Shown here one piece after another: positions 2,046 to 33,791 of a stretch of 33,791 nt of DNA (its first letter is position 1; each line of letters opens with the position of its first letter). The translations under genes were made by a program, and so were the position numbers. The notes beneath the pieces were generated by a model. The model was not told the origin of the DNA, searched no databases, and worked only from the letters and a program-made list of their open reading frames with translations. This DNA comes from a virus, in the IMG/VR virus record IMGVR_UViG_3300045988_069152; one strand, 5' to 3'.

Positions 2046-2680
2046 TTAACCCCCTTTCTTCTTAAAATTCTTTCGCAATCCCTCACGGTCCGGCTTGGTC
2101 TGCTCCATACGCCAACAGTTTTTCAGATATTCCCGGCCCTCTTCTGTCTTTGAATTTTCAAAAATCATGGCTTCACGCATAAAAAATAAATACACGTCAA
2201 TTTCCATTTCCTGGACTTCGTAAATATCAATATGGCAATAGTCCATTACCAATTTTTCCGGCCGTGTAAGAAGTGTATATGGTATCTCGTCCCCTTTATC
2301 CTGGCGTGGATAAAAGGGCATTTTTAGTTTGGGTTTGCTTTTAACTCGTCCACAAATTCCATATAGGCTTCCAGAATGGCGGTACACTCTTCAATGTCGT
2401 AATCTTCCACATCCTCTGCCGTTACGGGCACCTTTCCCATGTTATTGCTCAACACTGCTGCCAATAAACGGTAAATACTTTCTGTATCTTCAATAGTGGG
2501 GTTGTCCTCGTCCGTATCTTCCAGGTCTTTGATGGCTTCAAAAACGTGTTTCTGTGGCATCCTCACAAGGATTTTCTTTCCCTTTTCGGTCACGTTCCCG
2601 GCTTCGTCCGTCTTGTCCTTTAATGTGAACGGCCAGAACGTCCTTTTTAACTTATTGCAATTAAATTCTTTTACTGCCAT
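2046..2680 (-). CDS. Tail assembly chaperones G (2324..2680) and G-T fusion by -1 frameshift into the 2046..2387 frame
   Basis: A 118-aa acidic ORF ends at 2324. The overlapping ORF is in the -1 frame and ends 4 nt before the TMP start. The slippery heptamer AAACCCA lies 4 nt (one codon) before the G stop. The position between major tail and TMP is canonical. Confidence 0.7.
2330..2336 (-). promoter_or_regulatory. -1 programmed frameshift slippery site A AAC CCA (X XXY YYZ in the G frame)
   Basis: The coding strand reads GCA AAC CCA AAC TAA in the G frame and AAA CCC AAA CTA AAA ATG in the -1 frame. The -1 frame stays open to 2046. Confidence 0.6.
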
Positions 2681-2739
2681 AGCGGTATTCTCCTTTCAAA
2701 AAAGCGGCCAGGGCTTTCCCCTGGCCGCTTTGGTGGTTT

Positions 2740-3309
2740 CTACAAGGTATCGGATGCGGTTGTGGGGTCCATGTCCTCTTCATACAAAATAAGCGTGCCC
2801 TCTTTGTCCATGGGCTGTGCTTTAAATTCTGCATCAATAACCGTTTCACTGTCCTTGGCAAAAGCAATGGTAAATCCGGCCTGGTTGCTTCCGACAATGG
2901 TAACTCTCACATCCCCGTCCACGGTGTCCTTATGGACAAAATGAAGTACATAACGCTTTCCGTCTGCATTTCCAATACCACCGATTTTTACAGTACGCTT
3001 TTTCTTCTCTGCATCTTCGGTTACTCTGGCCGTCTGGCATAATTTCTTTAACGTGGTTCCGCACCATGTCATAATACCGGATTTCATGGTTGCTTCCTCT
3101 TCGGTAATGATAACCTTGGAAACTTTGCCCATATCGTCTTTGGCTTCATAAAAAGAGGGTGCGTACTCAATTTCTGCACCACCTTTAATGTGGCCCAGGC
3201 GGTTTTCTTCGGTTTCCAGTTCTTCGTTGGTCGGCATTTCCGCATTTGTTCCCTCAAACTCGGTACAATACAAATCGCCGGAACCTAAAACAATGCTTTC
3301 TTTGTTCAT
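2740..3309 (-). CDS. Major tail protein (putative)
   Basis: A 189-aa ORF with an ATG start, immediately upstream of the G/T chaperones and downstream of the neck genes. The call rests on size and position. Confidence 0.55.
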   Translation of the reverse strand: MNKESIVLGSGDLYCTEFEGTNAEMPTNEELETEENRLGHIKGGAEIEYAPSFYEAKDDMGKVSKVIITEEEATMKSGIMTWCGTTLKKLCQTARVTEDAEKKKRTVKIGGIGNADGKRYVLHFVHKDTVDGDVRVTIVGSNQAGFTIAFAKDSETVIDAEFKAQPMDKEGTLILYEEDMDPTTASDTL

Positions 3310-3683
3310 ACTCTGTTTACTCCTTTCGTTTTGGTAAGTAACCCTTTGATTTCATAGGCAGTTTGGTAACATTCTTCGTCTGGGATAGGTGCCAGGTACA
3401 TGTCATATTCCACATCCGGCACCACTTCCGTTTCAAACGCCGCCGCCAGGTCTTTGCGTTCCTGGTTATCCTCTGCCGTATAAAGTTCAAAGTCTATGTC
3501 TTGGGCTTTGAGGTTGTTTAGGCCGTCCGCCCCTCTGCCCGTTTCGTGAGATAATAGGTAAACTATGTAAGGAAGCGGCGGCACCGGGTCATCAACGGTT
3601 CCCACAAACTCATTTTTTGTAATGGGTACGCCGTGTTTTTTTGAAAAGGCTTTGGCTCTTTCCACCAATTCTTCCGCGTTCAT
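3306..3683 (-). CDS. Tail completion / tail terminator-like neck protein (putative)
   Basis: A 125-aa ORF whose stop/start overlaps the neighbouring genes. The call is by synteny only. Confidence 0.4.
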   Translation of the reverse strand: MNAEELVERAKAFSKKHGVPITKNEFVGTVDDPVPPLPYIVYLLSHETGRGADGLNNLKAQDIDFELYTAEDNQERKDLAAAFETEVVPDVEYDMYLAPIPDEECYQTAYEIKGLLTKTKGVNRV

Positions 3684-3684
3684 G

Positions 3685-4677: not shown

Positions 4678-5919
4678 TTACTGGCCGCCACCGCCGGACG
4701 CTGCCGCCGGGTTCTTCACACGGATAAATCCATTCTTGGCAACCACGTTTCCGCCCATGAATACACACGCCTTATAAGCAATCTGACCCTGCTTAAATTT
4801 GTACTCTGTGGATTTCTGTGCATCAATATCACTGAAAATAGCCACTTCGTAATTACTCAACGGGCCGTATGCCATGCAATATGCGTCTGCGGTTCCGCCG
4901 ATTTCTGCACATGCGGAATTGATAATGTAAGGCACTTCGTCAATGGTTCCCGTGTTTCCGTGGTTCATAATGGTGTAAACTTTGCGGCCCTGTTTATCTC
5001 TTAACTTGGCAAACTTTTTAAGGTCTTTCTTGCTAAGGATAAGCACCGCCATATCTTCCACATCCTCGTCCCCACCATAGGAATAAATGATTTCATCCAG
5101 TGTTCCGTCATCAATGGCGGTAATGGTGGAAATGTCGGTGCTGCGGTCAATAATGTCATCCGCTGAAGAAGTAGGATTGTAGAAAATTCCACGGAATTTT
5201 CCAGTTCCGCCAGCACCTACCAAAATCTGACGGGAAGCGTATCTTCTGATTGCACGGGTCACGCTTTCTTCCACAACTCCGTCATAATCTGCATCCGGCA
5301 GTTTCGACATTTCTTCCGGCTCTTCTGCGTATGCCGTGATTTTCTCACGCACAATGTCCGCATATCCAAAAGTCGGTTCAGAAGTGTTGTAATCTGTGTT
5401 TTCCGTTGTGCTTCCGGCTCCGTCCCCGTAAGACTTTACAAAAGGCCGCTGATAACTTTCGCCGCCAACAAGCGGAACGGTCCTTACTCTGTCAATAAGG
5501 GAAGAAACATTGTTGAAAGTCGGCATAATATCCGGGCTTGTATGATGTGGCATTACCACCCCGGTTGCCGTGCTTAATGCGTTACGGGGGTTTGCAAGGG
5601 CTTTGGCCTTATAGGAAACTTTTTTACCGTCCTTTAAGGCTTTTCCGCTCTTTTCTCTTACCTGGTTTTTCGGTTCGCTTCCGTTTTCTCCCGGTTTTCC
5701 GTCCCCAGTATCTTCCGGGTCCGTGCCCCCTGCTGCCTGGGCGGCCGCCATTAAATCTTCCCTGGCTTTAATCTCGTCCAGGATTTCCCCAATGGTTCTG
5801 GCTTCGTCCATGGCATCCGTCAATTCCTGGCCGCTTAACGCCTGGGCGTTCTTTCCCAGGTCTTTCAGTCTGTCTTTCAATTCTTTCTTTGACATTTTCA
5901 TTAACTCTTCTCTTGTCAT
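4678..5919 (-). CDS. Major capsid protein, HK97 family
   Basis: A 413-aa ORF with a coiled-coil scaffold-like N-terminal delta domain. It follows the ClpP protease and has a strong RBS (GAAAGGAGAATAGGAC before the ATG). Confidence 0.85.
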   Translation of the reverse strand: MTREELMKMSKKELKDRLKDLGKNAQALSGQELTDAMDEARTIGEILDEIKAREDLMAAAQAAGGTDPEDTGDGKPGENGSEPKNQVREKSGKALKDGKKVSYKAKALANPRNALSTATGVVMPHHTSPDIMPTFNNVSSLIDRVRTVPLVGGESYQRPFVKSYGDGAGSTTENTDYNTSEPTFGYADIVREKITAYAEEPEEMSKLPDADYDGVVEESVTRAIRRYASRQILVGAGGTGKFRGIFYNPTSSADDIIDRSTDISTITAIDDGTLDEIIYSYGGDEDVEDMAVLILSKKDLKKFAKLRDKQGRKVYTIMNHGNTGTIDEVPYIINSACAEIGGTADAYCMAYGPLSNYEVAIFSDIDAQKSTEYKFKQGQIAYKACVFMGGNVVAKNGFIRVKNPAAASGGGGQ

Positions 5920-5934: not shown

Positions 5935-6705
5935 CTACTGCCCCATATGGGCCATGGTAAGTGCAACAATTTGGCTTCGTTTCTCCTGGTCCGCCTTGTC
6001 CTGCTGCCCGGCGGTTTCCCCAGGTTTTAAAATATCTTTGGGGGCATTGTGACAATATAACTTTGTGTAGTCCTGCACGGCGGCGGCAATGGTGTTTTCC
6101 TCTCCAACCTTTACCCGGAAATACTGGGCGGCCTGGGTGCCGTTTAACCATGTTTCCTGCTCCATAAGTTCCTTTATTGTTTCAATGTCCACGCCCTCGT
6201 TTAGATGTTCGGCGTAAATGCTCCAAATACCGCTTTCCACGGCATCCAGGGTGTCCGCCATTTTCCGCATGTCCGTGGCGTTTCCCTCGCACCCTGCCCA
6301 TGGCTTATGTATCATCAAATAAGCATTGGACGGGATTGTGGGCATATCACTGTCCGCAAATGCGATAACGGAAGCAATGGACCCGGCCAGTGCATCCACA
6401 TAGACGGTTTTCTTTCCTGCATACCGTTTGAGCATGTTGTAAATGGCAATCCCGGCAAATACGGAACCGCCGCCGGAATTGATGTAAATATTTAAGTCCT
6501 TTCCGTTTGCTTCGGTAAGGAAATTCTTGATTGCTTCCGGGTACTGGTCCTCTTCCTGCCATGCTCCCCACCAATCGCTTACAATGTCCCCGTAAAAATA
6601 AAGGTCCACGCTTGTTTCCGTGGCGTTCTTAAACTCATAAAATTTTTCCACGGTAGCGTGTGCGGCATCCTTGCAAGCGGTAAATCTCTTTTTTGCTCCT
6701 GGCAT
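5935..6705 (-). CDS. ClpP-family prohead maturation protease
   Basis: Motifs INSGGGSVFAGIAIYNML, GSIASVIAF and MIHKPW match the Clp serine protease fold. It lies between portal and capsid. Confidence 0.85.
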   Translation of the reverse strand: MPGAKKRFTACKDAAHATVEKFYEFKNATETSVDLYFYGDIVSDWWGAWQEEDQYPEAIKNFLTEANGKDLNIYINSGGGSVFAGIAIYNMLKRYAGKKTVYVDALAGSIASVIAFADSDMPTIPSNAYLMIHKPWAGCEGNATDMRKMADTLDAVESGIWSIYAEHLNEGVDIETIKELMEQETWLNGTQAAQYFRVKVGEENTIAAAVQDYTKLYCHNAPKDILKPGETAGQQDKADQEKRSQIVALTMAHMGQ

Positions 6706-8064: not shown

Positions 8065-8092
8065 AGTTTAAAACCCTGCTGCCATGCGGCTT

Positions 8093-9757
8093 TTATGCCG
8101 CTTCGTTCAATAGTTTCTTGCCTATCTCACTATGATATTTTGAAACCATTGTCATTGCATCAAAGACGGAAACCGCCCCGTCTATCCTCATACGTTTTTC
8201 AATCTTAACGGGCTTCATGCGGCTATCATTCATATTGATTTCCACCGCCACATTAAGAAGATGGGATGCCAATAGGGTATTATCTCCCAGGTTATATTTA
8301 CCGTCTTTTAAATCGCCCTCAAACTGATGTAAGATAGGTGTTAAGTTTGTGCCCTGGTAAACGTCATCCACCTGGAACCCGGCCATTTTAAGGTCATCAA
8401 TCAAATACCCGGCCATGTATCTGTCATAGCCGATTTTTAACGGGCGGATTTTGTAAACCTTTACCAGGTCAATAAACCATTTATACACATCCTTATAGTC
8501 CACCTGGTTTTCCCCGGATATTTCCAAAAATCCTTTTTCCCGGTAAATGTTATATGGCACGTTATCTTCATTCACGGCTATTTCATACCGTTTCTTTGGC
8601 ATATAGAATTTTGTAATAACATTCCATTTTCCGTTTTTCCAAATAACGATTGATGCCGCCGTAAGGTCCGTGGTTCGTGAAAGGTCTATGCCGCCCACAC
8701 AATAACATCCCCGGTACTCTTCCAGGGTAATCTTTATATCCTCGTTTACCGCTTTCATTACATCCCAATAGTCCAACCATGCCACACTGGAATTTTGCTT
8801 GATATTGCAGTATTTTGTCATAAACTCCACTTTCTTTGAAAGGGATGTTTTGGCAATCTCTATTTGCTCTAAGTAAAATTCCTCTGATACGGACACGCCC
8901 AGGTTTGGGTTGCTCTTTTTTAATTCCTCTATTGTGTCCCATGCTTCCAGGTTGTCAATCATGTAAATAAACGGCAAAATCCTGGTTTCTTTTGAATTGC
9001 CTTTGAGGAATGAGGTAGAACGCCGCATAAGTTCATCATAAATTCCATCATTGATGTACCCGGCCGTGGATATTGACATGATAAGCGGCTGCTTTCTTGC
9101 ACCCAGGGCGGAAGTCATAACCTCATACTGTTTTAGTCCCTGGTCCCCCGGCCATGCTTCCATCTCGTCATTGACAACCATTTGAGGGTTGAAACCATCC
9201 GACTTTTTAGAGTTAAACGCAATCTTTTTTACACTGGTGTTAAACTCTTTAATATAAATATCGCTTCGGCGTTTCTTGGTTATGCTTTCCAGTTCGTCAT
9301 CCGCCTGGACAATCTGGTAAAAGGCATCATATACAAGGTCTGCCTGGTCCAGTTTAGGGGCAAGGAAATAAACCTTTGCCCCGTACTCTCCATCTATGTA
9401 AGTCATGTATGCCGCTATGGCTGCGGCAAACAAGGTTTTTCCGTTCTTACGGGCCACCACAATAAAAACTTCTCTGAATTGTCTGTACCCGGTCTTTTTA
9501 TCCATAATGCCAAAAATGGCACTTACTATGGCCTTTTGCCATAGTTCTAATTTCAGTAAATCGTTACGTCCCTCTGAATGGTGGCAAAAGTTTTCTATGA
9601 AGTTGATAGCCTTATTTGCCTTGTCCCCGTCAAAATCCCATTTGCCACTTTTTAAACCATCTACCAGTATTTTGTAAATGGTTCTTATCCATTTTCCAAC
9701 TGTTACGGTGCCATTTTCTATGGCTTCCCAGTATTGGAAAACATAGTTGTTATCCAT
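8093..9757 (-). CDS. terL: Terminase large subunit
   Basis: A 554-aa ORF with a Walker A-like VVARKNGKT and a Walker B/DE-like VVNDEME, followed by a C-terminal nuclease region. The ATG overlaps the TerS stop. Confidence 0.9.
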   Translation of the reverse strand: MDNNYVFQYWEAIENGTVTVGKWIRTIYKILVDGLKSGKWDFDGDKANKAINFIENFCHHSEGRNDLLKLELWQKAIVSAIFGIMDKKTGYRQFREVFIVVARKNGKTLFAAAIAAYMTYIDGEYGAKVYFLAPKLDQADLVYDAFYQIVQADDELESITKKRRSDIYIKEFNTSVKKIAFNSKKSDGFNPQMVVNDEMEAWPGDQGLKQYEVMTSALGARKQPLIMSISTAGYINDGIYDELMRRSTSFLKGNSKETRILPFIYMIDNLEAWDTIEELKKSNPNLGVSVSEEFYLEQIEIAKTSLSKKVEFMTKYCNIKQNSSVAWLDYWDVMKAVNEDIKITLEEYRGCYCVGGIDLSRTTDLTAASIVIWKNGKWNVITKFYMPKKRYEIAVNEDNVPYNIYREKGFLEISGENQVDYKDVYKWFIDLVKVYKIRPLKIGYDRYMAGYLIDDLKMAGFQVDDVYQGTNLTPILHQFEGDLKDGKYNLGDNTLLASHLLNVAVEINMNDSRMKPVKIEKRMRIDGAVSVFDAMTMVSKYHSEIGKKLLNEAA

Positions 9758-10139
9758 TCCGTAACGCTGCCAATCTGCTTATATTTTTCTTTTCTTTCGG
9801 TGGCAAATACTCAATAAGCGTGTGAATAATTGCCGTATATTGGCGTGAATATTTTTCATAAATCGTGGCTGATGGGTGGGCCTTTACAAACTTTTGGGAA
9901 GCGTTGACTGTTTCCGTTGTAAGCCCCTCTTTTTTCAATTCTTCTTTTGCCTGGAAGCAAGCCACTTTTAAAAACGCCGCTTCCTCAACCAATGAATTTA
10001 CAAGGCTTTTCTTGTCCTCGTCATCAATCCCGGCAAACATGGGGGCTAAAAATTCTATCTCTTTTTTTATCCTGGCATTTGTCAGTTTATTTATTCTTTT
10101 GGGTGCTTTCTTCCCATTACTTTTTTCATTTTCTGCCAT
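9750..10139 (-). CDS. terS: Terminase small subunit (P27-like)
   Basis: A 129-aa basic/helical protein immediately between HNH and TerL. Confidence 0.65.
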   Translation of the reverse strand: MAENEKSNGKKAPKRINKLTNARIKKEIEFLAPMFAGIDDEDKKSLVNSLVEEAAFLKVACFQAKEELKKEGLTTETVNASQKFVKAHPSATIYEKYSRQYTAIIHTLIEYLPPKEKKNISRLAALRNG

Positions 10140-10151: not shown

Positions 10152-10553
10152 TCATATGCGTGCGACCTTGCAGAGTTTTTTTGGGGTATCTCCCTCGGTT
10201 CTTTCGACCCCTCTCAAAATCTGCCCACCGGGGGGTGGTGTCTGCTGCACCATTTCTTTTGGCGGTAATAATTTTCCGTCACTATCAAAACGGTAACGGG
10301 TGTTAGGCTTTGCCTTATGCTCTTTGTTGTGGCAATCCTCGCAAAGGTATTCCAGGTTTGCCGGGTCCAGTGTCACGCTTGCATCATGCACATTGTTTGG
10401 TGTGATGTATTCTTTGTGGTGGACAATCACACCGGGAACATAAAGCCCGGCCGCCTTGCACCGCTCACACAAACCATTTGCCCGTTTAATAACTGTCTGC
10501 CTGGTTCTCTTCCATGCTGCTGATTGATAGAAACCTTTTGCATATTCTTTCAA
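10152..10553 (-). CDS. HNH endonuclease (terminase-associated)
   Basis: The motif C..C...HH....N...LCEDCHNKEH (GLCERCKAAG...VHHKEYITPNN...LCEDCHNKEHK) is present. The start is TTG. HNH-TerS-TerL synteny is typical of cos-type HK97-like phages. Confidence 0.85.
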   Translation of the reverse strand: MKEYAKGFYQSAAWKRTRQTVIKRANGLCERCKAAGLYVPGVIVHHKEYITPNNVHDASVTLDPANLEYLCEDCHNKEHKAKPNTRYRFDSDGKLLPPKEMVQQTPPPGGQILRGVERTEGDTPKKLCKVARI

Positions 10554-10615
10554 CTGCTGCCACCGTCCTTTCTTTCATGCTCAAAGGCTTATGAGTGCAT
10601 CCCACCCATAAGCCC

Positions 10616-10648
10616 ATGTTAATATAAATCACTGCTACATTCTGACCC
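10616..10648 (-). promoter_or_regulatory. Conserved box copy 2: GGGTCAGAATGTAGCA-N11-TAACAT upstream of HNH/terminase
   Basis: Same 10-mer and same spacing to a TAnnAT hexamer as copies 1 and 3. It lies in the 123-nt gap just after the putative late regulator. Confidence 0.4.
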
Positions 10649-10676
10649 ATTTACTTTGTGTCCTGCTGCCGCCTGG

Positions 10677-11244: not shown

Positions 11245-11261
11245 TCTACTGCCGCCCCCCC

Positions 11262-12476: not shown

Positions 12477-12487
12477 GTTTCATTCTC

Positions 12488-24387: not shown

Positions 24388-24416
24388 AAGGACACGTCTT
24401 TTATTGGCGTGTCCTT
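24388..24416 (-). terminator. Hairpin AAGGACACG / CGTGTCCTT downstream of the endolysin (terminator candidate, weak T tail)
   Basis: A 9-bp perfect stem with an 11-nt loop, 67 nt after the endolysin stop. Confidence 0.4.
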
Positions 24417-24482
24417 ATTCGTGACATATTATTTTCCTTGCTTTGCCTGGGTGTATTCCAAAAGGCGGTGTTTACGGTTCCA

Positions 24483-25766
24483 TTATCTCAATAACTGGTT
24501 TACTTTGTTCTGCACTTCCTGGTAATTGTACCCGGCGGCTTCCAGGCGGTTTTTACGCTCTTTGCCATTGCCCCATTTCCCGGCAATTACTTCCTTGGCT
24601 ACCTGGGCCACGGTCTTTGTGGGTTTGGTGGCTCCACCGCTCAAAAGTGCGTTTACCTGGTTCTGTACTTCCTGGTAGTTATACCCGGCGGCTTCCAGGC
24701 GGTTTTTACGGTCCGCACCATTGCCCCACTTTCCGGCAATTACTTCCTTGGCTACTGCCGCAACGGATTTTCCGCCGGACGGCTGCGGCGGTGCGGTAGT
24801 TTCCTTGTCATACTTCGGTACACCGTAGCCACGGATGTAACGGCCATTTACCGGGATTGTGCGGCGGCCAACGGCATTGTTTTTGTTGCCCTCAATAACA
24901 ACAATGTTTTCGCCGCTTACGCTCTCGACAATTCCCACATGGTCCGGCCACCCGGTATTGTCCCCGGCTCCACTGTCATCCCAGTCATAAAAAATCACAT
25001 CCCCAGGGGTAGGTGTTCTGCTATCGCTTTCCTGCCACTCTCCCAGGGCTTTGAATAATTCAATCATCTGGCCGCAACCACATTCTGTTGGAATGATGCC
25101 AGTTAAACCGCATTTGATAGCAACGGCGGAAACAAAGGTGGCACACCAAGCATCTGTATATTTTACCTTGTAACCCCTGGCAAGGGGTGTGTGGCCGTTG
25201 TATACGTCAATGATGCCCTTGTGGGTTCCGTCTGCTTCATTCCTGCCAATCCAGGCACGGGCCTGGGCTAATACTGCACTTGCTAATTTTGCCATGCTCT
25301 CTTCCCCCTTTACGTCATACTGCTGCAAATCGTACTGCGTAACAATCTGCATGGTATTTTCTACATACTTGCTACTTGTGGCGTACCCGTCCGCTTTGAT
25401 GGTTTCTAAGTACACCGCCGGGTCCTTGATACCCCGTAAATTCTGGTAGCGTTCTAACTGGATAAATTCAAAATATCCTTTCACGCCCTCTTCCATGGAT
25501 GCGTACACCCGGAAATTATCCGTAATTGGTGTGAGGGTTCCCGGTGTGTATTCTTCCATGGTCTTGAGGTTTACGCTTTTGCCTTTCCACTTTGTTCCAC
25601 ATTTAAGGCCAAAATAATTGTGGTACACGGCCGCCAGGCGGCTTTCTCCCCATCCGCTTTCAAGGATAGCCTGGGCAATAATGGGACTATGTACCGCAAT
25701 TCCGTAGGCGGAAGCGTATTTTTTTACATACCCGGCAATCTTTTTAATAAATTCCTGCTTGTCCAT
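24483..25766 (-). CDS. Endolysin: N-terminal glucosaminidase, central CHAP/NlpC-P60-like amidase/peptidase, two C-terminal Cpl-7 (CW_7)-like wall-binding repeats
   Basis: AQAILESGWGES...YNYFG matches the glucosaminidase family. WCATFVS ... DHVGIV gives a Cys/His papain-like domain. AKEVIAGKWGNG..RKNRLEAAGYNYQEVQN.VN.LL is repeated twice. Confidence 0.88.
   Translation of the reverse strand: MDKQEFIKKIAGYVKKYASAYGIAVHSPIIAQAILESGWGESRLAAVYHNYFGLKCGTKWKGKSVNLKTMEEYTPGTLTPITDNFRVYASMEEGVKGYFEFIQLERYQNLRGIKDPAVYLETIKADGYATSSKYVENTMQIVTQYDLQQYDVKGEESMAKLASAVLAQARAWIGRNEADGTHKGIIDVYNGHTPLARGYKVKYTDAWCATFVSAVAIKCGLTGIIPTECGCGQMIELFKALGEWQESDSRTPTPGDVIFYDWDDSGAGDNTGWPDHVGIVESVSGENIVVIEGNKNNAVGRRTIPVNGRYIRGYGVPKYDKETTAPPQPSGGKSVAAVAKEVIAGKWGNGADRKNRLEAAGYNYQEVQNQVNALLSGGATKPTKTVAQVAKEVIAGKWGNGKERKNRLEAAGYNYQEVQNKVNQLLR
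24498..24765 (-). repeat. Coding tandem repeat, period 153 nt (two CW_7-like units)
   Basis: 24498..24612 and 24651..24765 align nearly base for base. Confidence 0.85.
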
Positions 25767-25784
25767 GGTATTTTCCCTCTTTCT

Positions 25785-26225
25785 TTAATCTTCGTCCGGC
25801 AATTCTGTGGTGTATTTTGAAAGTAAGGCTTTCACTTTCTGCCACAATCCCTTTACGGGCAATCCGGCCAATGTCATATTTTTTAAGATGCTTACAATCT
25901 CATACGCCACAAAGAGAATGGCGAAAAATTCCGACATGCCCAGGTGTAACGGCGTTTCCATACCGATAACTGCCCATAAATCCTTTGGGATAAATCCAAT
26001 AAGGTTGATGCTTACCACCACATCCGCCAGGTGTAAAAACAGAATGGACAAAATCATGCCCACCTTGCGGATTGTTCCATTGATGCCCACACAACTATTG
26101 AATTTTCTTTCTTTGCACGCTCTAAGCACGCCCATAATTGTGTCAAAAACGATTGCCAGGGCAACCGCTCTTAAAAACGGGCTTTGTGCCATCTGCATGA
26201 GAAATTCCAGTAACTCGCTTTTCAT
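25785..26225 (-). CDS. Holin (phage_holin_4_1-like)
   Basis: A 146-aa protein with several TM segments (AVALAIVFDTIMGVL, GMILSILFLHLADVVV, FFAILFVAYEIVSIL), directly upstream of the endolysin. Confidence 0.8.
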   Translation of the reverse strand: MKSELLEFLMQMAQSPFLRAVALAIVFDTIMGVLRACKERKFNSCVGINGTIRKVGMILSILFLHLADVVVSINLIGFIPKDLWAVIGMETPLHLGMSEFFAILFVAYEIVSILKNMTLAGLPVKGLWQKVKALLSKYTTELPDED

Positions 26226-26267
26226 GGCTCCTTTCTCCTTTCTTCGTTTTTTTCTTGGTACGGTATC

Positions 26268-26300
26268 ATTGTAGGGCGTTTGGAGTTGAAATTCTGACCC
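26268..26300 (-). promoter_or_regulatory. Conserved box copy 3: GGGTCAGAATTTCAAC-N11-TACAAT upstream of holin
   Basis: The 16-mer is identical to copy 1. It lies in the 100-nt gap between the RT stop and the holin start. Confidence 0.4.
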
Positions 26301-26325
26301 TATTACACGCCGGGCGGCTCCGGGC

Positions 26326-27378
26326 TTATGCCGGAATTAAAATATTGCTTTCCGTCTGCTCCCACTCCCAAAACAGTAATTCATATTCTATGGACTTTGT
26401 AACGTGGTAGGTGTCGGCGTGGCCCATGTGTCCCAGGCGGCTTTCATATTTTCTTGTAAATGTTTCTTTGTCCAGTTCTCCGGCTTCCAAATGCTTCACA
26501 TCATTTTTCAGCCGCCGGACGGATGCCTTGCGGACTTTTCTATAATTTGGATGGTGGATATATCCGCAAAAATCAATCCCGTTTCCGGCGTAAAGAATGG
26601 TGCTTTTGGGATTTATCTGCAATGCCATTTCCTTTTCCAAAAATTCTTCTATTCGCTTAACCCATTCCTTTAACTGGTTAAGGTCCGGGGTTAAAATAAT
26701 AAAATCGTCCATGTATCGGATGTAATACGGGATGTGTAAAACGTGCTTTACGAATTTGTCCAGGCGGTTGCCGTATACATTGGCAAATAACTGGCTTGTG
26801 AGGTTCCCCACGGGGATGCCCACGCCGTCCGGCAATATCCCGTTCTTATCTATGATTTCATCCATGAGGATAAGGGCTTTCTTATCCCCTATGTACCGTC
26901 TGTTTTCGTCTTTTAATTTGTCATGTGGAATAGATGCAAAGTATTTGTGTATGTCCCCTTTATAGGCATAAAGCCGCAATCCCTCACGCTCCATAAGTTC
27001 ATACATCCATTGGTATAACTGGTTACTTGCGGCGTGCATCCCTTTCCCGTCCCGGCAAGCGTAAGAATGATAATAAAACCCCTGTTCAAATATCGGCCCT
27101 ATGGCGTTTACAATCATGTGCTGCACCACCCGGTCATAGAAAGGTAACGCCATAATCAACCTTTCTTTTGGTTCCCATACCTTAAAAACGGTATATTCTC
27201 CCTGGTGGTATGTGAGGTTTTCCGCTTCATCACATGCCCTTAAAAGGTTATCTTCCTTTGACATAGAAAAAGCCAATACCTCTTCACTGTACCGCTTGCA
27301 TTTTGCGGCCTGGTGGAATGAAGTATTGGCGTTGTCAAAGGTATACATTTTATCATGCAATCCTTTAACTGTTTTCAT
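26326..27378 (-). CDS. brt: DGR reverse transcriptase
   Basis: The RT motifs include YMDDFIIL (the YxDD box) and the DGR-typical PVGNLTSQLFANVY. There is no maturase or endonuclease tail. It is adjacent to TR and avd. I chose ATG 27378 over TTG 27393. Confidence 0.9.
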   Translation of the reverse strand: MKTVKGLHDKMYTFDNANTSFHQAAKCKRYSEEVLAFSMSKEDNLLRACDEAENLTYHQGEYTVFKVWEPKERLIMALPFYDRVVQHMIVNAIGPIFEQGFYYHSYACRDGKGMHAASNQLYQWMYELMEREGLRLYAYKGDIHKYFASIPHDKLKDENRRYIGDKKALILMDEIIDKNGILPDGVGIPVGNLTSQLFANVYGNRLDKFVKHVLHIPYYIRYMDDFIILTPDLNQLKEWVKRIEEFLEKEMALQINPKSTILYAGNGIDFCGYIHHPNYRKVRKASVRRLKNDVKHLEAGELDKETFTRKYESRLGHMGHADTYHVTKSIEYELLFWEWEQTESNILIPA

Positions 27379-27540
27379 GTTGTGCCCTACCAATTTTCAA
27401 ATATTCTTTTACTAAAAGGCGGTGCCTTTGTTATTTTGTCCTGGTGTGCCCAGGAACGGGAAAACCGTCTGACTTATCAAAAATGTTAGATAAATCTTTG
27501 CCAGTAACCCATAGGTTTCTGTGTCTGAAAATGCTGATTA

Positions 27541-27668
27541 GTCACAGACGCACCACACGCCAATGTTCGTGTTCACGTTCCACGGGTAGTTGTTGCAATT
27601 GACGGCCCGTGAGCCGCAATACACGCCGTTGTTCCAATTGCCGCCGCCAATGAGGGCGTGCAAGCCAG
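27541..27668 (-). repeat. DGR template repeat (TR), 128 nt
   Basis: It aligns without gaps to 28162..28289 with 114 of 128 positions identical. The minus strand is rich in AAC/AAT codons. Confidence 0.9.
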
Positions 27669-27711
27669 GAACGGCCTGGTGCGAATTAACAGTTTCCCCA
27701 AATCTTATTTA

Positions 27712-28110
27712 TTATTTCCATTTTCCATCTTTCACGGCTTCAATAACGCCGCCCATTATTTTTCCGATTTCTGCCAGGTGTCGGCTTGCCACCTCATAGC
27801 GGTGTTTGCTCATGGCTTTATATTCCAGGTCATAAGACAGCCGTATAAGCATTTTAATAAACTGCAATTCCACATCCGCATTATAAATGTGGCTTTTCGT
27901 TCCGGTCTTTCTGAAACGGATAACGCTTTTTGACATTTCAAATATGGATGTTTTAATTTGGGTCTGTAATGCAAATTTCTCAAACTTCGGAAATTGTGCC
28001 AACACTGGATAGATGTATTTTAGAAAATCATAAATTTTCTGGTATAGCACCATACTTTCCATGTATGGGTCTATTGGTTTTGTATTTGTATTCTGTTTAT
28101 TTTCTGCCAT
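27712..28110 (-). CDS. avd: Avd, DGR accessory variability determinant (four-helix-bundle protein)
   Basis: A 132-aa basic helical protein located between target and TR, as in the mtd-avd-TR-brt cassette of Bordetella phage BPP-1. Confidence 0.8.
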   Translation of the reverse strand: MAENKQNTNTKPIDPYMESMVLYQKIYDFLKYIYPVLAQFPKFEKFALQTQIKTSIFEMSKSVIRFRKTGTKSHIYNADVELQFIKMLIRLSYDLEYKAMSKHRYEVASRHLAEIGKIMGGVIEAVKDGKWK

Positions 28111-28125
28111 GTTCTTCCCTCATAG

Positions 28126-28145
28126 GGGTGGGCTTTCGCCCACCC
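28126..28145 (-). promoter_or_regulatory. GC-rich hairpin GGGTGGGC-GAAA-GCCCACCC just 3' of the VR/target stop (DGR target-recognition hairpin candidate)
   Basis: A perfect 8-bp stem with a 4-nt loop, starting 7 nt after the target stop codon on the minus strand. Confidence 0.6.
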
Positions 28146-28152
28146 AAACAGA

Positions 28153-29253
28153 TTACAGACTGTCACAGACGCACCACACGCCAACGCTCGTGCCCACGCT
28201 CCACGGGTAGCTGCTGCACCTGACGGCCCGTGAGCCGCAATACACGCCGTTGCCCCAACCGCCGCCGCCAATGAGGGCGCGCAAGCCAGTGCTTGAATAC
28301 ATCCACGCTTGACCGTAACCGCCGCCAAATACGTCATACCATGCACCACTGGAAGCCGTGGGGTCATGTATCAACTCATTTAACCATTTCCAAACATTTC
28401 CCACCAGGTCGCAAATATTAAAACTGCTTACGGCGTTTGCAATCTTTCCAACGGCCGTTCTTGCGGTGTTGGTTTTTGCCGTCCATCCGTTGGTATTGGA
28501 ATTGTCAAGGCCCTGGGGGCTTCCGTCTGCTGCCACGGTAAATTCCATATAGTTCGGCAATCTCTTTCCTACACGTCTTGCACGTTCCCCGGCAATATAC
28601 CAGTTAAGGCCCTCGGTTCCCGTAATTGGTGTGGCGTTATAAACGGACTGCAAACCATTGGCCCCGTCATTACTGGAGAGGTAAATATCTCCCCATAATG
28701 CGTTCCCCAGGTATACCATGCCGGACGGGTCGCATTTAGGACGGTGCTTTGTGGTCCATACGGAATTTGGTAAAATATCCACACGGGTATTGCTTTCCCA
28801 TCCACTTCCCCTTACGGACCCGGAAGCATTGACCGGGCGGCCAAAATCATCCGTATTTCTTACACGTCCATAATGGAAACCGCCAATTTTACGGGTGTTT
28901 GTATCGTCCCATTCCTCGCCGTCCGGGAATGTGGAATTTAAGGAAATCAAATAAATTTCATCCTGGGCATCCGTTCCGGGGTCGCAAATGTAAATATAAT
29001 AATCGCTTCCGTGTGCAAAATCGGCTCCCTGGTCCAGGTTTGCCTTGGTAAGTTCGGTTTCTGCCGTCTTGAATACGGCGTTTTCTCCTACTGCAATCAC
29101 ACATCCGGCGGCAATCGTAACCGTGCCCGCGTCACTGTACTGGATGTACTCTTTTACCGGGGCCACAATGTCGGAAATGGCCGCCATTTTGGCAACTGTG
29201 ATTTTTGCCCGTTCATCCGTCATATTTTCGTCATAAACAAATAATCTACTCAT
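28153..29253 (-). CDS. mtd: DGR target protein: Mtd-like receptor-binding tail fibre protein with a C-terminal C-type-lectin/FGE-like fold carrying VR
   Basis: A 366-aa protein containing GKRLPNYMEF...DLVGNVWKWLNE (matching the GNVWEW signature of the FGE/CLec fold). The last 45 residues are encoded by VR. Confidence 0.85.
   Translation of the reverse strand: MSRLFVYDENMTDERAKITVAKMAAISDIVAPVKEYIQYSDAGTVTIAAGCVIAVGENAVFKTAETELTKANLDQGADFAHGSDYYIYICDPGTDAQDEIYLISLNSTFPDGEEWDDTNTRKIGGFHYGRVRNTDDFGRPVNASGSVRGSGWESNTRVDILPNSVWTTKHRPKCDPSGMVYLGNALWGDIYLSSNDGANGLQSVYNATPITGTEGLNWYIAGERARRVGKRLPNYMEFTVAADGSPQGLDNSNTNGWTAKTNTARTAVGKIANAVSSFNICDLVGNVWKWLNELIHDPTASSGAWYDVFGGGYGQAWMYSSTGLRALIGGGGWGNGVYCGSRAVRCSSYPWSVGTSVGVWCVCDSL
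28162..28289 (-). repeat. DGR variable repeat (VR), 128 nt
   Basis: Counterpart of TR. Thirteen differences fall at TR adenines and one at a TR thymine. Confidence 0.9.
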
Positions 29254-29741
29254 TATGCCAGTTCTCCTTTCATTGCTTCCACTTCCTCTTTCGTAATGCC
29301 CAGGCGGTCATAATATGTAACCGCTGCCGGGATGCCAATTTCTGTGGTGCCCATATTTAAGGCTTTGGAAAGGGTTAAGATAGTGTGGGTAATGGTGTTG
29401 TTCTGTTCTGCTGCCGTGTCGGTGCTTTCTGTGCCCTCTGCGGCGGCTTCTACGGGTTCATTGGTATCTTTGTCCACCTCTGCCGTTTCAACGCTTGCAA
29501 CGGTCGGATAAACCGCCCCGTTTTTGATTTTCTGGCCCTCTGCCACCTCTGCACAAAACATAATCGTGACGGTCTTTCTATCCTCGGATAACTCAATGAC
29601 CGGGCATGTTATCCAATTCTGATTTTCCAGTTTTTCAACTGCTGCCAACCAATCTTCTTTTTCCAGGCTACCTTTTTTTACCAGTTTATAGGTATTTACC
29701 AGGTCAGACCGGGTTTTGATAACTTTAGGAAATCCTTTCAT
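29253..29741 (-). CDS. Hypothetical tail-associated protein, 162 aa
   Basis: Its stop overlaps the target start (TAATG). The central region is acidic and low-complexity. Confidence 0.5.
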   Translation of the reverse strand: MKGFPKVIKTRSDLVNTYKLVKKGSLEKEDWLAAVEKLENQNWITCPVIELSEDRKTVTIMFCAEVAEGQKIKNGAVYPTVASVETAEVDKDTNEPVEAAAEGTESTDTAAEQNNTITHTILTLSKALNMGTTEIGIPAAVTYYDRLGITKEEVEAMKGELA

Positions 29742-29745: not shown

Positions 29746-30804
29746 TTATACCTCGCTTTCTTTCAATAAATAGGTTCCAATGTAATTGCCAATGTAGGCC
29801 ATGTTTGTGCCCTCACGCAATGCAACGGTCATGGTGTGCATTAAATCCGTGTTGTCGGCGGTAAACTTCTTTGGAATAGCCATAACGCTTTCCAAATTTG
29901 TTTCCACCGTGTAGTCCCCGGCTTCCGTGATATAAAAGCCAATTCCCGTGGCGGAAATATCGGCGGTCTGCACGGTTCCCGTTGTGGTATTGGTAAGGGT
30001 AACTGTGACGGGTGCCGTGATGTTTTCCAACAAATATTCCATGTATACCTTGTACGCCATGTTGTGGACTTTTACCCGTAAATCATCAATCTGTAACTGT
30101 AAATTTCCGGCCACATCCCCGGCAAGTTCGCTCTGTTTTTCTGCAAACCATTCATTCCAGGCCGCCGCCTGGTTGTCCATGAAATCCTGGGTAAGTTCGG
30201 CATACTCTTCCACAAAATCGGCATGGTCTTTTTCCATTGCCTTTTTCTCTTTAGAAAACCAGGCATTAAACTGGGCGGCAAACTGGGAAAAGTCCAGTTC
30301 TTCAAACTGGGAACCGATAAAGCCGCACACGGTTTCATCCGCTCTTTCATCCGCAATGTCTGCCTGGGTAATTTCAACCGCTCCGGCCGGAATGTAAATA
30401 CGGGCCAGGCTCTTTTCCTGGATAACGTCATTGTTTACCAGTTCCGGGGCCTGGGGGTTGCTTGAAAATGCACCCTCTAAAACGTAAATACTCGGCTTTC
30501 TTTCGGTTTCGTCATTCCTTAACACAATGCGGTCAATTCGTGGAAGCGTACCGCTTGCCTGGCTCAATGTGAGGTTTAACGGGGCGGTGTTGTGGATGGT
30601 GTGCAAATTGATATAGGCGTAACCCGTCCGGGTGCCGCCGTCCACCGTTACTTCCATTCCGCCTGCTGCCGTGACTTGTAAATGTCCATACGCCACGCCC
30701 TCTTTGTAAAAAGGGGCTTTGTCCTCGTTCATGTCCTGGCCGTTGTACATGTGTTCTTTATCGTTTAGGTCGGTAGCATTATAGAAAAATCCTCTTACTG
30801 CCAT
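29746..30804 (-). CDS. Putative tail fibre / baseplate structural protein
   Basis: A 352-aa protein downstream of the Gp37-like protein, with a central coiled-coil region. The call is by synteny. Confidence 0.45.
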   Translation of the reverse strand: MAVRGFFYNATDLNDKEHMYNGQDMNEDKAPFYKEGVAYGHLQVTAAGGMEVTVDGGTRTGYAYINLHTIHNTAPLNLTLSQASGTLPRIDRIVLRNDETERKPSIYVLEGAFSSNPQAPELVNNDVIQEKSLARIYIPAGAVEITQADIADERADETVCGFIGSQFEELDFSQFAAQFNAWFSKEKKAMEKDHADFVEEYAELTQDFMDNQAAAWNEWFAEKQSELAGDVAGNLQLQIDDLRVKVHNMAYKVYMEYLLENITAPVTVTLTNTTTGTVQTADISATGIGFYITEAGDYTVETNLESVMAIPKKFTADNTDLMHTMTVALREGTNMAYIGNYIGTYLLKESEV

Positions 30805-31870: not shown

Positions 31871-31872
31871 GA

Positions 31873-32823
31873 TTACACCCCCAAATATGAAATTCTGTAA
31901 TATACCGATACGGAAAGGTAGTTGGTGCCCTCTTCGGCGGAATAGGTAAGTGTATTGGTTCCATCCTGCAACTGGATAAAGTCCCCGTCCTCGTCCAGGT
32001 ATTCATTTATCACGGTGCCGTATTTCTCAATAACTCTGTCCCAATCAATCACGCCGTAATTGTCTTTGTGGTTCTCAATCTCTGCCTGGGTTACACCATC
32101 CAAAAGGTATACATTTTTCTTTCCCGTATAGGTGTTTATAATGACGTACTGGCCGGATGACATGATAAAATCATTGTCTGTATATCCAACCTTGGTAAAT
32201 TCTCCGCTTTCGGCATGATAGATGGCCGGATTTTTCACGCCGCCATCTGCCCGGAAAATAACCACAATACCGATATTGTCGGCACCGCTTTCATTTTCAA
32301 TTTCCTTTACCAAATCCGCTTCACGGTGTCCAAATATGCGGCCCTCTTCCGGGAAGCACGCCGGGAAGTAGAAATCACTTACCCAGGATGCCATTACCAC
32401 TTCAATATCTGCCAGGTCCTTAAAATACGGGTCTGTGCATTTAAGGGAAATGGTATAATCTCGCACAACGCCCGTTGTATTTCCCGGTATGATGCTTTCC
32501 ACTTCGTATTCAATGGCTTTGGCTTCCCCGTCCTCTATATACTGCATGGTGCCCGTCCGCTTAATCGGAAAGGTGCGGTATAAAAGGTTACGGTTTGCCT
32601 TGTAATTGCTATCCATTTCCACGGTTAAGACAATATTTCTTTCCTTTGCCGTGGCTCCCTGGTAAGTGCTGCCGTCCGTTGTGGTGTTTTCGCTTGTTAC
32701 CACATTGCTTTCAATGCCGTAAATTCCCTCTATATCCAGTAAATGGAACGGGGTAAACTCGTCCCAGGTAAAGGTCAATGCCACGTTTTTATCACTGGTG
32801 CATATCACTTTAATATCTGACAT
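31873..32823 (-). CDS. Distal tail protein (Dit)-like phage tail family protein
   Basis: A 316-aa ORF immediately after the TMP stop. Confidence 0.6.
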   Translation of the reverse strand: MSDIKVICTSDKNVALTFTWDEFTPFHLLDIEGIYGIESNVVTSENTTTDGSTYQGATAKERNIVLTVEMDSNYKANRNLLYRTFPIKRTGTMQYIEDGEAKAIEYEVESIIPGNTTGVVRDYTISLKCTDPYFKDLADIEVVMASWVSDFYFPACFPEEGRIFGHREADLVKEIENESGADNIGIVVIFRADGGVKNPAIYHAESGEFTKVGYTDNDFIMSSGQYVIINTYTGKKNVYLLDGVTQAEIENHKDNYGVIDWDRVIEKYGTVINEYLDEDGDFIQLQDGTNTLTYSAEEGTNYLSVSVYYRISYLGV

Positions 32824-32829
32824 TTCCGC

Positions 32830-33791
32830 TTACCCCCTTTGCATTGCTAAAATCATGCTTCTTGTCTGTAATCTTGTTTGTCTTGCTACTTCATACGGGC
32901 TTAACGCCTTGGGGCTTGTAATGTTCACGTTCTGAACATATCCGCCACCGCCTTTTCCGGCGTTCTCCATGGCGTGGTTTTTTGCACTTCCCGTAAGTGG
33001 TGTAACAACGGCTTTTCCGTTTACCATGCTAAGAAGTTCCGGCCCGGCTTCTGCCACCATGGCCGTGCCCTCTCTAAGCACGCCGCCTTTTGCCAGTCTT
33101 GGCAATGACAATTCCCCTATTTTTCCCAGGGAAACGCCCGGTATTTCATTGATAATTCCAATTACACCGTTTATCATGCGGATAAATTTATTTACAACGC
33201 CCTCAATGGTAGCCAAACATGAGTTAATGGCAGATTTAAAGGCATCCCCTACGGCCGAACCGATTTTTACACCTACGTCAACGAAACATCCTTTAATTTT
33301 CTCCCACAAGCCGGAAAAGAAAGAAGTCACGTTGGCAAAGGCATTTTTAATATTGGTCCATGCGTTTTGAAACTGGGTGCCGAACCACTGCGGCACTGCT
33401 GCCAGGGCCGTTTTAATTTCCGTCCACCGGGCACCGAACCAAGAACCGATTGCCGCAAATACATTTGTCACATTGGTGTAGGCATTTGTGAACATAGTAA
33501 GGAACCACGTTGCCACCTGGGCCAGGGCGTTTTTAATATCCTGCCATCTGGCACCAAACCAGGAACCGATTGCCGCAAATATACGGGTTACGTTGTTGTA
33601 TGCGTTGGTAAACATGGTAAGAAACCACGTTGCCACCTGGGCCAGGGCGTTTTTAATATCCTGCCATCTTGCACCGAACCACTGGCCGATTGCTGCAAAT
33701 ACGTTTTTCACATTGGTGTAGGCATTTGTGAACATGGTAAGGAACCACGTTGCCACCTGGGCCAGGGCGTTTTTAATATCCTGCCATCTGG
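32830..33791 (-). CDS. Tail tape measure protein, C-terminal part (open at the right window edge; the track start at 33756 is an internal Met)
   Basis: It contains 40-aa tandem repeats (WFGARWQDIKNALAQVATWFLTMFTNAYTNV..FAAIG). The frame is continuous with 1..2042 if position 1 is equated with 33767. Confidence 0.85.
   Translation of the reverse strand, partial: RWQDIKNALAQVATWFLTMFTNAYTNVKNVFAAIGQWFGARWQDIKNALAQVATWFLTMFTNAYNNVTRIFAAIGSWFGARWQDIKNALAQVATWFLTMFTNAYTNVTNVFAAIGSWFGARWTEIKTALAAVPQWFGTQFQNAWTNIKNAFANVTSFFSGLWEKIKGCFVDVGVKIGSAVGDAFKSAINSCLATIEGVVNKFIRMINGVIGIINEIPGVSLGKIGELSLPRLAKGGVLREGTAMVAEAGPELLSMVNGKAVVTPLTGSAKNHAMENAGKGGGGYVQNVNITSPKALSPYEVARQTRLQTRSMILAMQRG
33380..33791 (-). 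repeat. Coding tandem repeat, period 120 nt, about 3.5 copies here, continuing into 1..~110
   Basis: The 25-mer GCGTTTTTAATATCCTGCCATCTGG recurs at 33527, 33647, 33767 and 1. A diverged copy lies near 33407. Confidence 0.85.

Follow-up and report, generated by a model that had tools for sequence, protein, structure and literature searches.

A strand-polar octamer in Rep-bearing phages of the Lachnospiraceae, a candidate Chi-like site

The closest described parallels to the sequence examined here are the Chi sites of bacteriophages that depend on the RecBCD enzyme of their host. In such phages Chi occurs at a higher density than in E. coli and close to the packaged ends, and it is equally frequent within and outside open reading frames (ORFs). 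Lambdoid phages that lack a recombinase (Rec⁻) over-represent Chi, concentrating it between the replication genes and the terminase (Bobay et al.; PMC3784561), and several sequences called "Chi", those of Firmicutes and H. influenzae among them, were found through the survival of rolling-circle plasmids exposed to RecBCD or AddAB (bioRxiv 10.1101/2021.07.08.451572). The element considered here is the octamer GGCAGCAG, which recurs along one strand of IMG/VR virus record IMGVR_UViG_3300045988_069152, a stretch of 33,791 nucleotides analysed at its full length (hereafter the window); it is the circular form of a temperate Lachnospiraceae siphovirus that has all its genes on the minus strand. The octamer was undescribed in the literature searched, where text matches were confined to microbiome papers because GGCAGCAG lies within the universal 16S 341F primer, and a whole-word search combined with "octamer" was empty.

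Like Chi in P1-like and Rec⁻ lambdoid phages, GGCAGCAG is short, asymmetric and rich in G, outnumbers every other 8-mer of its genome, occurs in several ORF frames as well as in non-coding DNA, and is densest between the replication genes and the terminase. Like phage Chi, it is enriched in phages without a recombinase or inhibitor of their own and lacking where these are present (PMC3784561; bioRxiv 10.1101/2021.07.08.451572). In the pC194 high-molecular-weight assays in E. coli, B. subtilis, L. lactis and S. aureus, a short sequence acting in one orientation was shown to let linear multimers of a rolling-circle replicon survive RecBCD or AddAB (bioRxiv 10.1101/2021.07.08.451572), and the octamer here accompanies a rolling-circle initiator; in those assays, however, the nuclease enters at the tail tip, whereas the orientation of the octamer, if replication runs with transcription, would fit only a cos-generated or injected right end. 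It is not related in sequence to the Chi sites known from Firmicutes (AGCGG, GAAGCGG and GCGCGTG). Host DNA carries it at an observed-to-expected ratio (O/E) of 1.25–1.8, whereas in E. coli Chi itself exceeds expectation only ~2.3-fold under comparable models (PMC3784561). In the phage the octamer is 8–13 times as dense as in the host, in contrast to the ~1–3 times of E. coli phages, and all copies share one orientation, unlike the Chi sites of P1, which lie on both strands.

Count, reading frame and strand of the octamer

GGCAGCAG appears to be a short DNA signal that is kept by selection and read one way along the whole phage genome. An exact search of the 33.8-kb window found 27 copies of its plus-strand form, CTGCTGCC, and none in the opposite orientation, all 27 reading GGCAGCAG on the minus strand. 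An earlier note on this DNA, made from the sequence alone, had listed 26 positions, all of them correct, and had overlooked the copy at 28527; it was also right that no reverse copy exists, whereas the one-mismatch copies, given there as three, number 37, with 36 on the motif's own strand. GGCAGCAG is the most frequent octamer on the coding strand of the window, where an order-3 Markov model expects 1.9 copies rather than 27 (~14-fold; z = 18); no other 8-mer present seven or more times has so high a z, and dinucleotide-preserving shuffles gave 0.79 ± 0.84 copies with both strands summed. The main one-mismatch variant is GGCGGCAG (11 copies), followed by TGCAGCAG (5 copies), other single-base variants being rare; apart from GGCGGCAG, one-mismatch neighbours are without enrichment. 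The 3' part of the octamer, CAGCAG, occurs 35 times on one strand of the window and once on the other.

The contribution of coding sequence was gauged with a codon-shuffled null in which proteins and per-gene codon usage were preserved and intergenic DNA was left untouched (1000 shuffles). This null gave 12.4 ± 1.9 copies in total, with a maximum of 20, including the six fixed intergenic copies; in coding DNA, 21 copies were observed where ~6.4 were expected, which agrees with the earlier contention that codon or amino-acid bias does not suffice. The same null fails to reproduce the count but does reproduce the polarity, with only 0.1–0.3 reverse copies expected in the window. Gene context and frame were assigned copy by copy to the positions returned by the exact search: 14 copies fall in an Ala-Ala, six in a Gln-Gln and two in a Gly-Ser-Arg frame, six are intergenic, and one spans two genes. 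The reading in three frames had been noted before, correctly, for the copies at 14104, 16562 and 6001, as had the non-coding position of those at 8076, 10663, 15146 and 23585. ORFs hold 21 of the 27 copies (78%), yet the ~11% of the window that is non-coding has an octamer density at least equal to that of coding DNA. A preference for gene junctions, which the earlier note had seen in many copies, is present but weak, with 9 of 27 copies no more than 110 nt upstream of a start codon against ~16% expected.

The same 8-mer is the unit in all four groups of phages that carry it (see below), and its length is set at exactly eight bases by flanks that vary from group to group. An extended motif was rejected, the flanking preference of the window (Y at −1, K at +1) being absent from the other groups, and so was a hairpin motif, CTG/CAG stems being possible at only 5–6 copies.

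Within the window, complete polarity says little, because all genes lie on one strand and the composition is extremely skewed (GGAG 121 vs CTCC 3; CGAG 66 vs CTCG 0). The integrase-bearing group of related phages (L144 and L251–L330) has its integrase and lysogeny genes opposite to the rest of the genome. Across 70-odd loci of this group, every octamer in the inverted block lies on the genome-wide strand and none is in the sense orientation of the inverted genes. At least seven distinct sites are involved, one of them in the integrase gene in nearly all loci and the others at six or more positions according to subgroup, and their density, ~0.8 per kb, equals the genome average despite a composition that strongly disfavours that orientation. 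Because the copies in inverted genes keep the genome-wide strand, the octamer is a whole-genome DNA signal, and explanations at the level of codons or mRNA are excluded. The description of the octamer as always lying on the coding strand thus holds for the window and fails for the inverted lysogeny genes of related phages, which carry antisense copies; and of the polar DNA and RNA signals that had been envisaged, the DNA-level reading is supported and the RNA-level ones are not.

Composition in the same group (L251-L330) behaves similarly. At four-fold degenerate sites the coding strand of the main genome body has a GC skew of +0.30 and an AT skew of +0.41, whereas that of the inverted genes is pyrimidine-rich, with skews of −0.20 and −0.12, leaving a strand-associated component of ~+0.25; the purine excess follows the DNA strand, not the coding strand. 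This skew suggests a very strong asymmetry of unidirectional replication or of repair. The octamer sits on the purine-rich, leading-strand-like strand, which in rolling-circle replication is the nicked, displaced strand.

Phages that carry the octamer

A search for homologues of TerL retrieved 25 prophage loci and 79 viral contigs. The prophage loci are labelled mostly as Lachnospiraceae (Acetatifactor, Petralouisia muris and others), with a few from Christensenella, Ruminiclostridium, Clostridium and Clostridiales. Every one of the TerL relatives contains the octamer, at 0.2–1.25 copies per kb, co-oriented with TerL and with 0–2 reverse copies, across GC contents from 38 to 52%; relatives with proteins 35–60% identical and no DNA similarity beyond the head genes still have 0.8–1.25 copies per kb. 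Only a few sites keep their position among the relatives, one example being that just past the TerL stop codon; in closer relatives individual sites are kept in 5–90% of distinct sequence contexts, and those that are lost are often replaced by other Ala-Ala codon pairs. Across this span of protein identity and GC content density is kept at 0.5–1.25 per kb while sites turn over, a pattern typical of redundant sites selected for number, not position. Some relatives have three octamers within ~50 nt, a kind of cluster that does not occur in the window (L021 3151-3207; L080 6145-6183; L013 681-738 and 20828-20859; L144 13958-14016; L172 4105-4157); the cluster of L080 lies ~230 nt upstream of the Rep gene.

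A relationship with the phage C5 methyltransferase, another suggestion of the earlier note, was discarded: close relatives without this gene retain the same gene order in the replication module, and seven phage stretches, five without the methyltransferase and two with it, pooled and counted jointly, contain 103 copies in 76.6 kb.

The octamer is also found in phages that are not related to the window through TerL. A scan of IMG/VR for triple occurrences of the motif returned mostly tandem repeats in unrelated viruses, while two of its contigs, L144 and L201, led to two further groups. Four groups carry the octamer, with copies given here as motif strand : opposite strand. The window family consists of siphoviruses with an IS30-type transposase, the rolling-circle replication initiator Rep, ParA and ParB (27:0 in 33.8 kb). 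Saumur, a cultured phage of Enterocloster clostridioformis YL32, is a myovirus with a Rep that is 36% identical, ParA, ParB, an IS30-type transposase and a diversity-generating retroelement (DGR; 37:0 in 47 kb). The L144/L251–L330 group encodes a tyrosine integrase, SSB, Rep, VRR-NUC, ParA and a ParB-like protein (20:1 in 14.9 kb), and L331 and L332 combine an unrelated terminase and portal with Rep and an RNase H-like gene, and have no ParA or ParB (20:0 and 18:0). The Mu-like phage Villandry, from the host strain of Saumur, has no Rep and contains 2 + 2 copies, and the Blautia phage Montmirail, which has an exonuclease gene and a non-rolling-circle replication module, contains 0 in 30 kb. 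TerL relatives of L331, with no Rep seen in their available DNA, hold 0–0.3 copies per kb, and one holds 0.39. Among Rep-bearing phages outside the four groups, Terrisporobacter phage TPDSL_ph2 (Rep 41% identical, GC 29%) and phiSM101 of C. perfringens have 0 copies, and MT835664 (Rep 29% identical) has 0:1.

No 8-mer is more frequent than the octamer in any of the four groups that carry it, and the PF23343 Rep, a rolling-circle initiator of the G2P/HUH type, is the sole protein common to them at BLAST level, although relatedness of Rep does not follow motif presence. These temperate phages have about one octamer per kb and no recognisable recombinase or nuclease inhibitor. The simplest summary of this comparison is that the octamer accompanies a rolling-circle Rep in the Lachnospiraceae host clade. 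Because only Rep is shared and its phylogeny does not track the motif, the distribution points to a reader that would be encoded by the host.

Several candidates were dropped in the course of this comparison. A ParB centromere was rejected, as L331-type phages carry the motif and have neither ParA nor ParB, and so was a Rep nick site or iteron, as the Terrisporobacter phage and phiSM101 lack the octamer throughout their 37–38 kb. The apparent enrichment in L203 arises from antisense repeats within a single gene of 1983 aa. The top octamers of Montmirail derive from a 27-bp tandem repeat and not from a dispersed motif; the unit occurs ~16 times in tandem in an ORF of the replication module (L389 13071-13500), as an iteron-like array or a 9-residue protein repeat.

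A possible Chi-like site and the alternatives

By analogy with the phages described at the outset, the octamer quite possibly acts like Chi on an end-processing nuclease of the host, a reading that is put forward tentatively. A host helicase-nuclease of the AddAB/RecBCD class, enzymes whose general distribution leads them to be expected in these hosts, would enter the phage DNA at a double-strand end. The entry point would be the right cos end beside the replication module, which would be the last to be packaged and the first to be injected, and which would be opened when the terminase cuts. The enzyme would move against the direction of the genes and, on the 3'-ended strand, reach the octamer from the 3' side, whereupon degradation would stop and RecA-dependent repair or concatemer formation would be promoted. 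Each site would be recognised only part of the time, so that a high density of redundant copies would be favoured, densest near the point of entry.

The arrangement of the window is consistent with such a scheme. The TerS and TerL genes (8093..10139), together with the adjacent HNH gene, suggest HK97-type cos packaging, and gene order would place the cos site near 10140-10676 and set the direction of packaging. If HK97-type packaging from TerS towards the head genes is assumed, the octamer would belong to the strand whose 3' terminus is at the right cos end, would point the way packaging is presumed to run and would be densest within a few kb of that end, and this would be the active orientation for entry there, as in lambda, where Chi is active towards a nuclease entering at the right cos end. 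Copy density is greatest in the block from Rep to HNH that adjoins the terminase and holds ParA, ParB-like, VRR-NUC and small genes (10152..15146; nine copies, 1.8 per kb). It is lower in the early region (1.2 per kb), the tail genes (0.9), the post-lysin small genes and transposase (0.7), the stretch from TerS to the connector genes (0.5) and the tape measure (0.3), and reaches 0 in the 3.7 kb of Avd, reverse transcriptase, holin and lysin. Spacing is irregular, from 109 to 4942 bp, and the longest copy-free run, of 4.9 kb (23593..28526), covers small genes, lysin, holin, the DGR reverse transcriptase, Avd and the start of Mtd. In 28 full-length relatives the densest 1-kb bin is directly upstream of TerL (1.6 per kb), and 24 of the 37 copies of Saumur lie between ParB and Rep. 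No recombinase and no Gam/Abc-type inhibitor was recognised among the proteins of the window. To judge by the few genomes compared, presence and absence may follow need, the octamer being enriched in the four Rep groups and not in Villandry (2 + 2) or the exonuclease-encoding Montmirail (0).

A number of observations weigh against a Chi-like site, foremost those from host DNA. The host sample comprised 335 kb of non-redundant flanks of prophages of the window family, from mixed hosts and with orientation scored relative to genes. It contains 25 copies in the phage orientation and 9 in the other, against Markov expectations of 19–22 and ~5, with a skew no greater than composition predicts; at 0.10 per kb the octamer is 8–13 times sparser there than in the phages (0.8–1.3 per kb; 103:0 in the 76.6 kb of phage DNA on the same contigs). 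None of the shorter words within the octamer is clearly in excess in the host flanks, and no other Chi-like word stood out in a de novo count of 150 kb of them, a small and mixed sample (z ≤ 7). Since the flanks are near expectation, a classical host Chi, which the earlier note had proposed to recognise by enrichment and skew in the host genome, is not supported. Nor does the excess over the host resemble that of Rec⁻ lambdoid phages, whose Chi density is up to three times, not ten times, that of the host (PMC3784561). A single orientation, moreover, would protect only one DNA end, and it would be the wrong one for entry at the tip of a rolling-circle tail should replication proceed in the direction of transcription, to which the strand skew points. 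Both the position of cos and the direction of packaging are assumptions drawn from the order of the genes. The gradient in density coincides with the division into replication and structural modules and is confounded by it, and the L331 group shows little gradient at all.

There is a substantial, if minority, chance that the octamer is not the Chi of the host but an undescribed, phage-borne "direction mark" tied to rolling-circle replication in Lachnospiraceae phages. Its reader would be a host factor without a corresponding load of motifs on the chromosome, and this factor would either direct priming of the displaced strand or disarm a helicase-nuclease defence against rolling-circle or newly injected DNA. 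Unrelated phages that gain a G2P-type Rep in this host clade would then be obliged to evolve the octamer on a single strand at a density of ~1 per kb. What is new in comparison with known cases of Chi in phages is that the octamer is not a feature of the host chromosome, is strictly one-stranded, and tracks a rolling-circle initiator across unrelated phages.

An explanation that does without a nuclease is that the octamer is a single-strand signal on the Rep-nicked, displaced strand, that is, the lagging-strand template, where it would serve complementary-strand priming or the binding of a host factor. Recognition by a primase or primosome would be needed only by Rep-type phages and would differ by host clade. 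The motif indeed tracks the PF23343 Rep in four unrelated groups and is not found in phages of the same or related hosts that lack Rep, and these phages have no recognisable primase or replicative helicase. It keeps strictly to one DNA strand, through inverted genes as well, the purine skew assigns that strand as the leading-strand-like and hence displaced one, the mean spacing of ~1 kb falls within the range of Okazaki fragments, and no enrichment on the host chromosome is called for. Yet the spacing is Poisson-like or clustered, with gaps of up to 4.9 kb and triple clusters within 50 nt, which is unlike evenly placed primers, and to our knowledge bacterial primases read trinucleotides, not exact octamers. 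No polar word of this kind is seen in the Rep phages of Terrisporobacter and C. perfringens or in MT835664, and which strand Rep nicks is only presumed. A single-strand signal is for these reasons considered unlikely, if better placed than the explanations that follow.

A polar protein-binding site acting on transcription is improbable, whether as a stoperator-like roadblock against read-through into the prophage from promoters of the host or as an ops-like element for pausing or antitermination on the non-template strand. The prophage is inserted at many sites in co-orientation with host genes, which makes read-through transcription a real risk; antisense copies in the lysogeny genes still face transcription in the lytic direction; and the commonest variant, GGCGGCAG, is one base from the ops core, GGCGGTAG. 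The stoperators of cluster A mycobacteriophages are binding sites of the L5 gp71 repressor, 13 bp long, mostly intergenic, following local transcription and co-varying with the repressor. The octamer is like them in forming two to three dozen short, asymmetric sites in fixed orientation throughout the genome. It is unlike them in its length of 8 bp, in lying within ORFs at 21 of 27 copies, in keeping its strand through inverted genes, and in being the same in groups with unrelated regulators. An identical octamer in four groups whose lysogeny modules are unrelated and share no regulator is not expected of repressor sites, which co-vary with immunity. The location of 78% of copies inside ORFs and the number of sites per genome (27–37, far above that of ops-type elements) also speak against a transcriptional role, as does the link to Rep, which it leaves unexplained: Mu-like Villandry has equally long operons without enrichment of the motif. 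The transcription pause or antitermination element that the earlier note had listed is unlikely on the same grounds, given the antisense copies in inverted genes and a distribution that tracks the rolling-circle Rep and not operon structure.

At least as improbable is a guide for a DNA translocase, of the kind formed by the FtsK orienting polar sequences (KOPS) or SpoIIIE recognition sequences (SRS) for FtsK/SpoIIIE, or an asymmetric restriction or defence site, such as that of a Type III enzyme at CAGCAG. As with KOPS and SRS, the octamer is G-rich, strictly polar and co-oriented with the leading-strand-like strand, and the prophages are co-oriented with flanking host genes. KOPS and SRS, however, characterise host chromosomes, and the flanks sampled here hold the octamer at expectation without additional skew, so that the translocase-orienting sequence suggested earlier would not be the KOPS or SRS of the host; nor do the phages encode a recognisable translocase. 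As to restriction, a Type III enzyme at CAGCAG cuts only between inversely oriented sites, so that a single orientation would be safe, and in phage T7 the EcoP15I sites, which are CAGCAG, share one orientation; the hexamer within the octamer is likewise found many times in one orientation (35 vs 1). Avoidance of inverted pairs explains orientation, but neither the ~14-fold enrichment of an exact 8-mer nor its maintenance in antisense contexts, which sets it apart from the Type III evasion of T7, and the Mu-like phage of Saumur's host strain has its 2 + 2 copies in both orientations.

That the octamer is a mere by-product of composition, codon usage or repeats (Ala-Ala GCA-GCA, Gln-Gln CAG-CAG) on a purine-rich coding strand is scarcely credible: although the general strand skew is extreme and the codon-shuffled null already gives ~6 coding copies, not 0.5, and fully reproduces the lack of reverse copies, the 21 coding copies stand against ~6.4 expected, the total of 27 exceeds the maximum of 20 in 1000 shuffles, six copies are intergenic, one-mismatch neighbours save GGCGGCAG are not enriched, antisense copies persist in inverted genes whose composition strongly disfavours them, and in host genes of similar codon usage the octamer is no commoner than expected.

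If the octamer does prove Chi-like, it would be the first candidate for the sequence that the end-processing nuclease recognises in Lachnospiraceae, one of the dominant families of gut bacteria, and selection on it would be seen on the phages and not visibly on the host, which would bear on the long debate as to whether Chi is frequent for functional reasons or through codon usage. Should it be something other than Chi, it would represent a new kind of signal, specific to one strand and associated with the rolling-circle replication of phages with double-stranded DNA. In either case a top-ranking octamer on one strand at ~1 per kb can serve as a marker that flags this class of gut prophages. 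Since both Saumur and its host strain E. clostridioformis YL32 are cultured, the question is directly testable.

The phage of the window and its individual sites

All genes and copies described below are on the minus strand. The tape-measure gene runs off both ends of the window (3–2042 and 32830–33789) and contains a single copy, in the Ala-Ala frame of its C-terminal part (33396..33403). The connector genes (2046–4650) include a gene at 2324-2680 with a copy in its Ala-Ala frame (2455..2462); the major capsid gene (4678–5919) has one in the Ala-Ala frame (5730..5737) and the prohead protease gene (5935–6705) one in the Gln-Gln frame (6001..6008). The portal gene follows at 6710–7921, and between it and TerL (8093–9757) lies an intergenic copy 10 nt past the TerL stop codon (8076..8083), a position also occupied in relatives whose TerL is only 66–71% identical. 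A GCGGC-ATAAAA-GCCGC hairpin (8084-8110, coding strand) is directly upstream of this conserved octamer. Beyond TerS (9750–10139) and the HNH gene (10152–10553), one non-coding copy abuts the HNH start codon (10554..10561) and another lies in a 123-bp non-coding stretch upstream of HNH (10663..10670).

The VRR-NUC gene (11738–12400) holds three copies, two in the Ala-Ala frame (11785..11792 and 11947..11954) and one in the Gln-Gln frame (12182..12189). That in the ParB-like gene (12488–13414), in the Ala-Ala frame (12925..12932), is poorly conserved among relatives; the next falls in the overlap of the ParA end and the ParB-like start (13430..13437), and ParA (13416–14243) has a further copy in a Gly-Ser-Arg frame (14104..14111). 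The G2P-type Rep (PF23343 REP_ORF2-G2P; phrog_3584) is encoded at 14240–15112, with an intergenic copy 33 nt upstream of its start codon (15146..15153). Gene 16512-16997 contains copies in the Ala-Ala (16562..16569) and Gln-Gln (16923..16930) frames, an intergenic copy follows at 17076..17083, and that in the Gln-Gln frame of gene 17591-17899 (17813..17820) is retained in 14 of 16 distinct relatives. Ala-Ala copies are present in the genes for an OGG-like glycosylase (18047–18856; copy at 18586..18593) and the C5 methyltransferase (19371–20663; copy at 20612..20619), and gene 20810-21229 has a copy in the Gln-Gln frame (20906..20913). Past the IS30-family DDE transposase gene (21640–22674), a copy lies in a Gly-Ser-Arg frame of gene 22755-23270 (22936..22943) and another is intergenic (23585..23592). 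The lysin and holin genes (24483–26225) are followed by the DGR (26326–29253), made up of the reverse transcriptase (26326-27393), Avd (27712-28110) and the Mtd-like target gene (28153-29253), the last with a copy in the Ala-Ala frame (28527..28534). The remaining copies are all in Ala-Ala frames, two in gene 29253-29741 (29408..29415 and 29639..29646) and one in gene 29746-30804 (30663..30670), among the tail genes (29746–32823).

Both window ends fall in the tape-measure gene, and the join aligns contiguously in relatives, with 25 gapped positions in a repetitive stretch. At 21593–21595 the right end of the element, a 2-bp GG spacer and the left end form a circle junction. Because the window ends meet inside the tape-measure gene and joined element ends are present, the window represents the circular phage form. 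A megablast search of the phage collection with 12 kb of the window gave no match.

The glycosylase gene, of the HhH-GPD 8-oxoguanine-glycosylase-like type, is also present in close relatives (L115-L124), and the C5 methyltransferase gene, variably present in close relatives, lies ~0.5 kb upstream of it with two small genes between; the pairing is reminiscent of a mismatch glycosylase that partners a cytosine methylase. CCWGG occurs 223 times in the window against 49 expected and CCSGG 152 times against 42, with CCWGG in the host flanks at expectation (391 vs 396). The CCWGG excess is equal in relatives with and without the C5 methyltransferase and extends to L144 and Mu-like Villandry, and CCWGG is nearly missing from Saumur (4 vs 74) and L331 (2 vs 18).

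Integration takes place via the IS30-family DDE transposase (window 21593-22674) and not a tyrosine or serine integrase. Look-ups of exact proteins located integrated copies at more than 25 chromosomal sites (L105-L124, L359-L386); an exact look-up of the window's own transposase returned two short contigs only, and homologues were used instead for the insertion sites. Nearly all insertions are co-oriented with neighbouring host genes, and where the transposase end was inspected the insertion was just upstream of a host gene, often one for a ribosomal protein; one insertion sits within a flagellar operon. A mini-element consists of the transposase and two small upstream genes with host DNA on both sides (L361 9009-11140; L364), and hundreds of ~2-kb contigs (P0005-P0120) carry transposases 86% identical to the phage type; the integration module of the phage seems also to live as a free insertion sequence. 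In L106 (1-14126), the module of holin, lysin, small genes and transposase is fused to a MobA/Toprim/serine-recombinase element in place of the structural genes.

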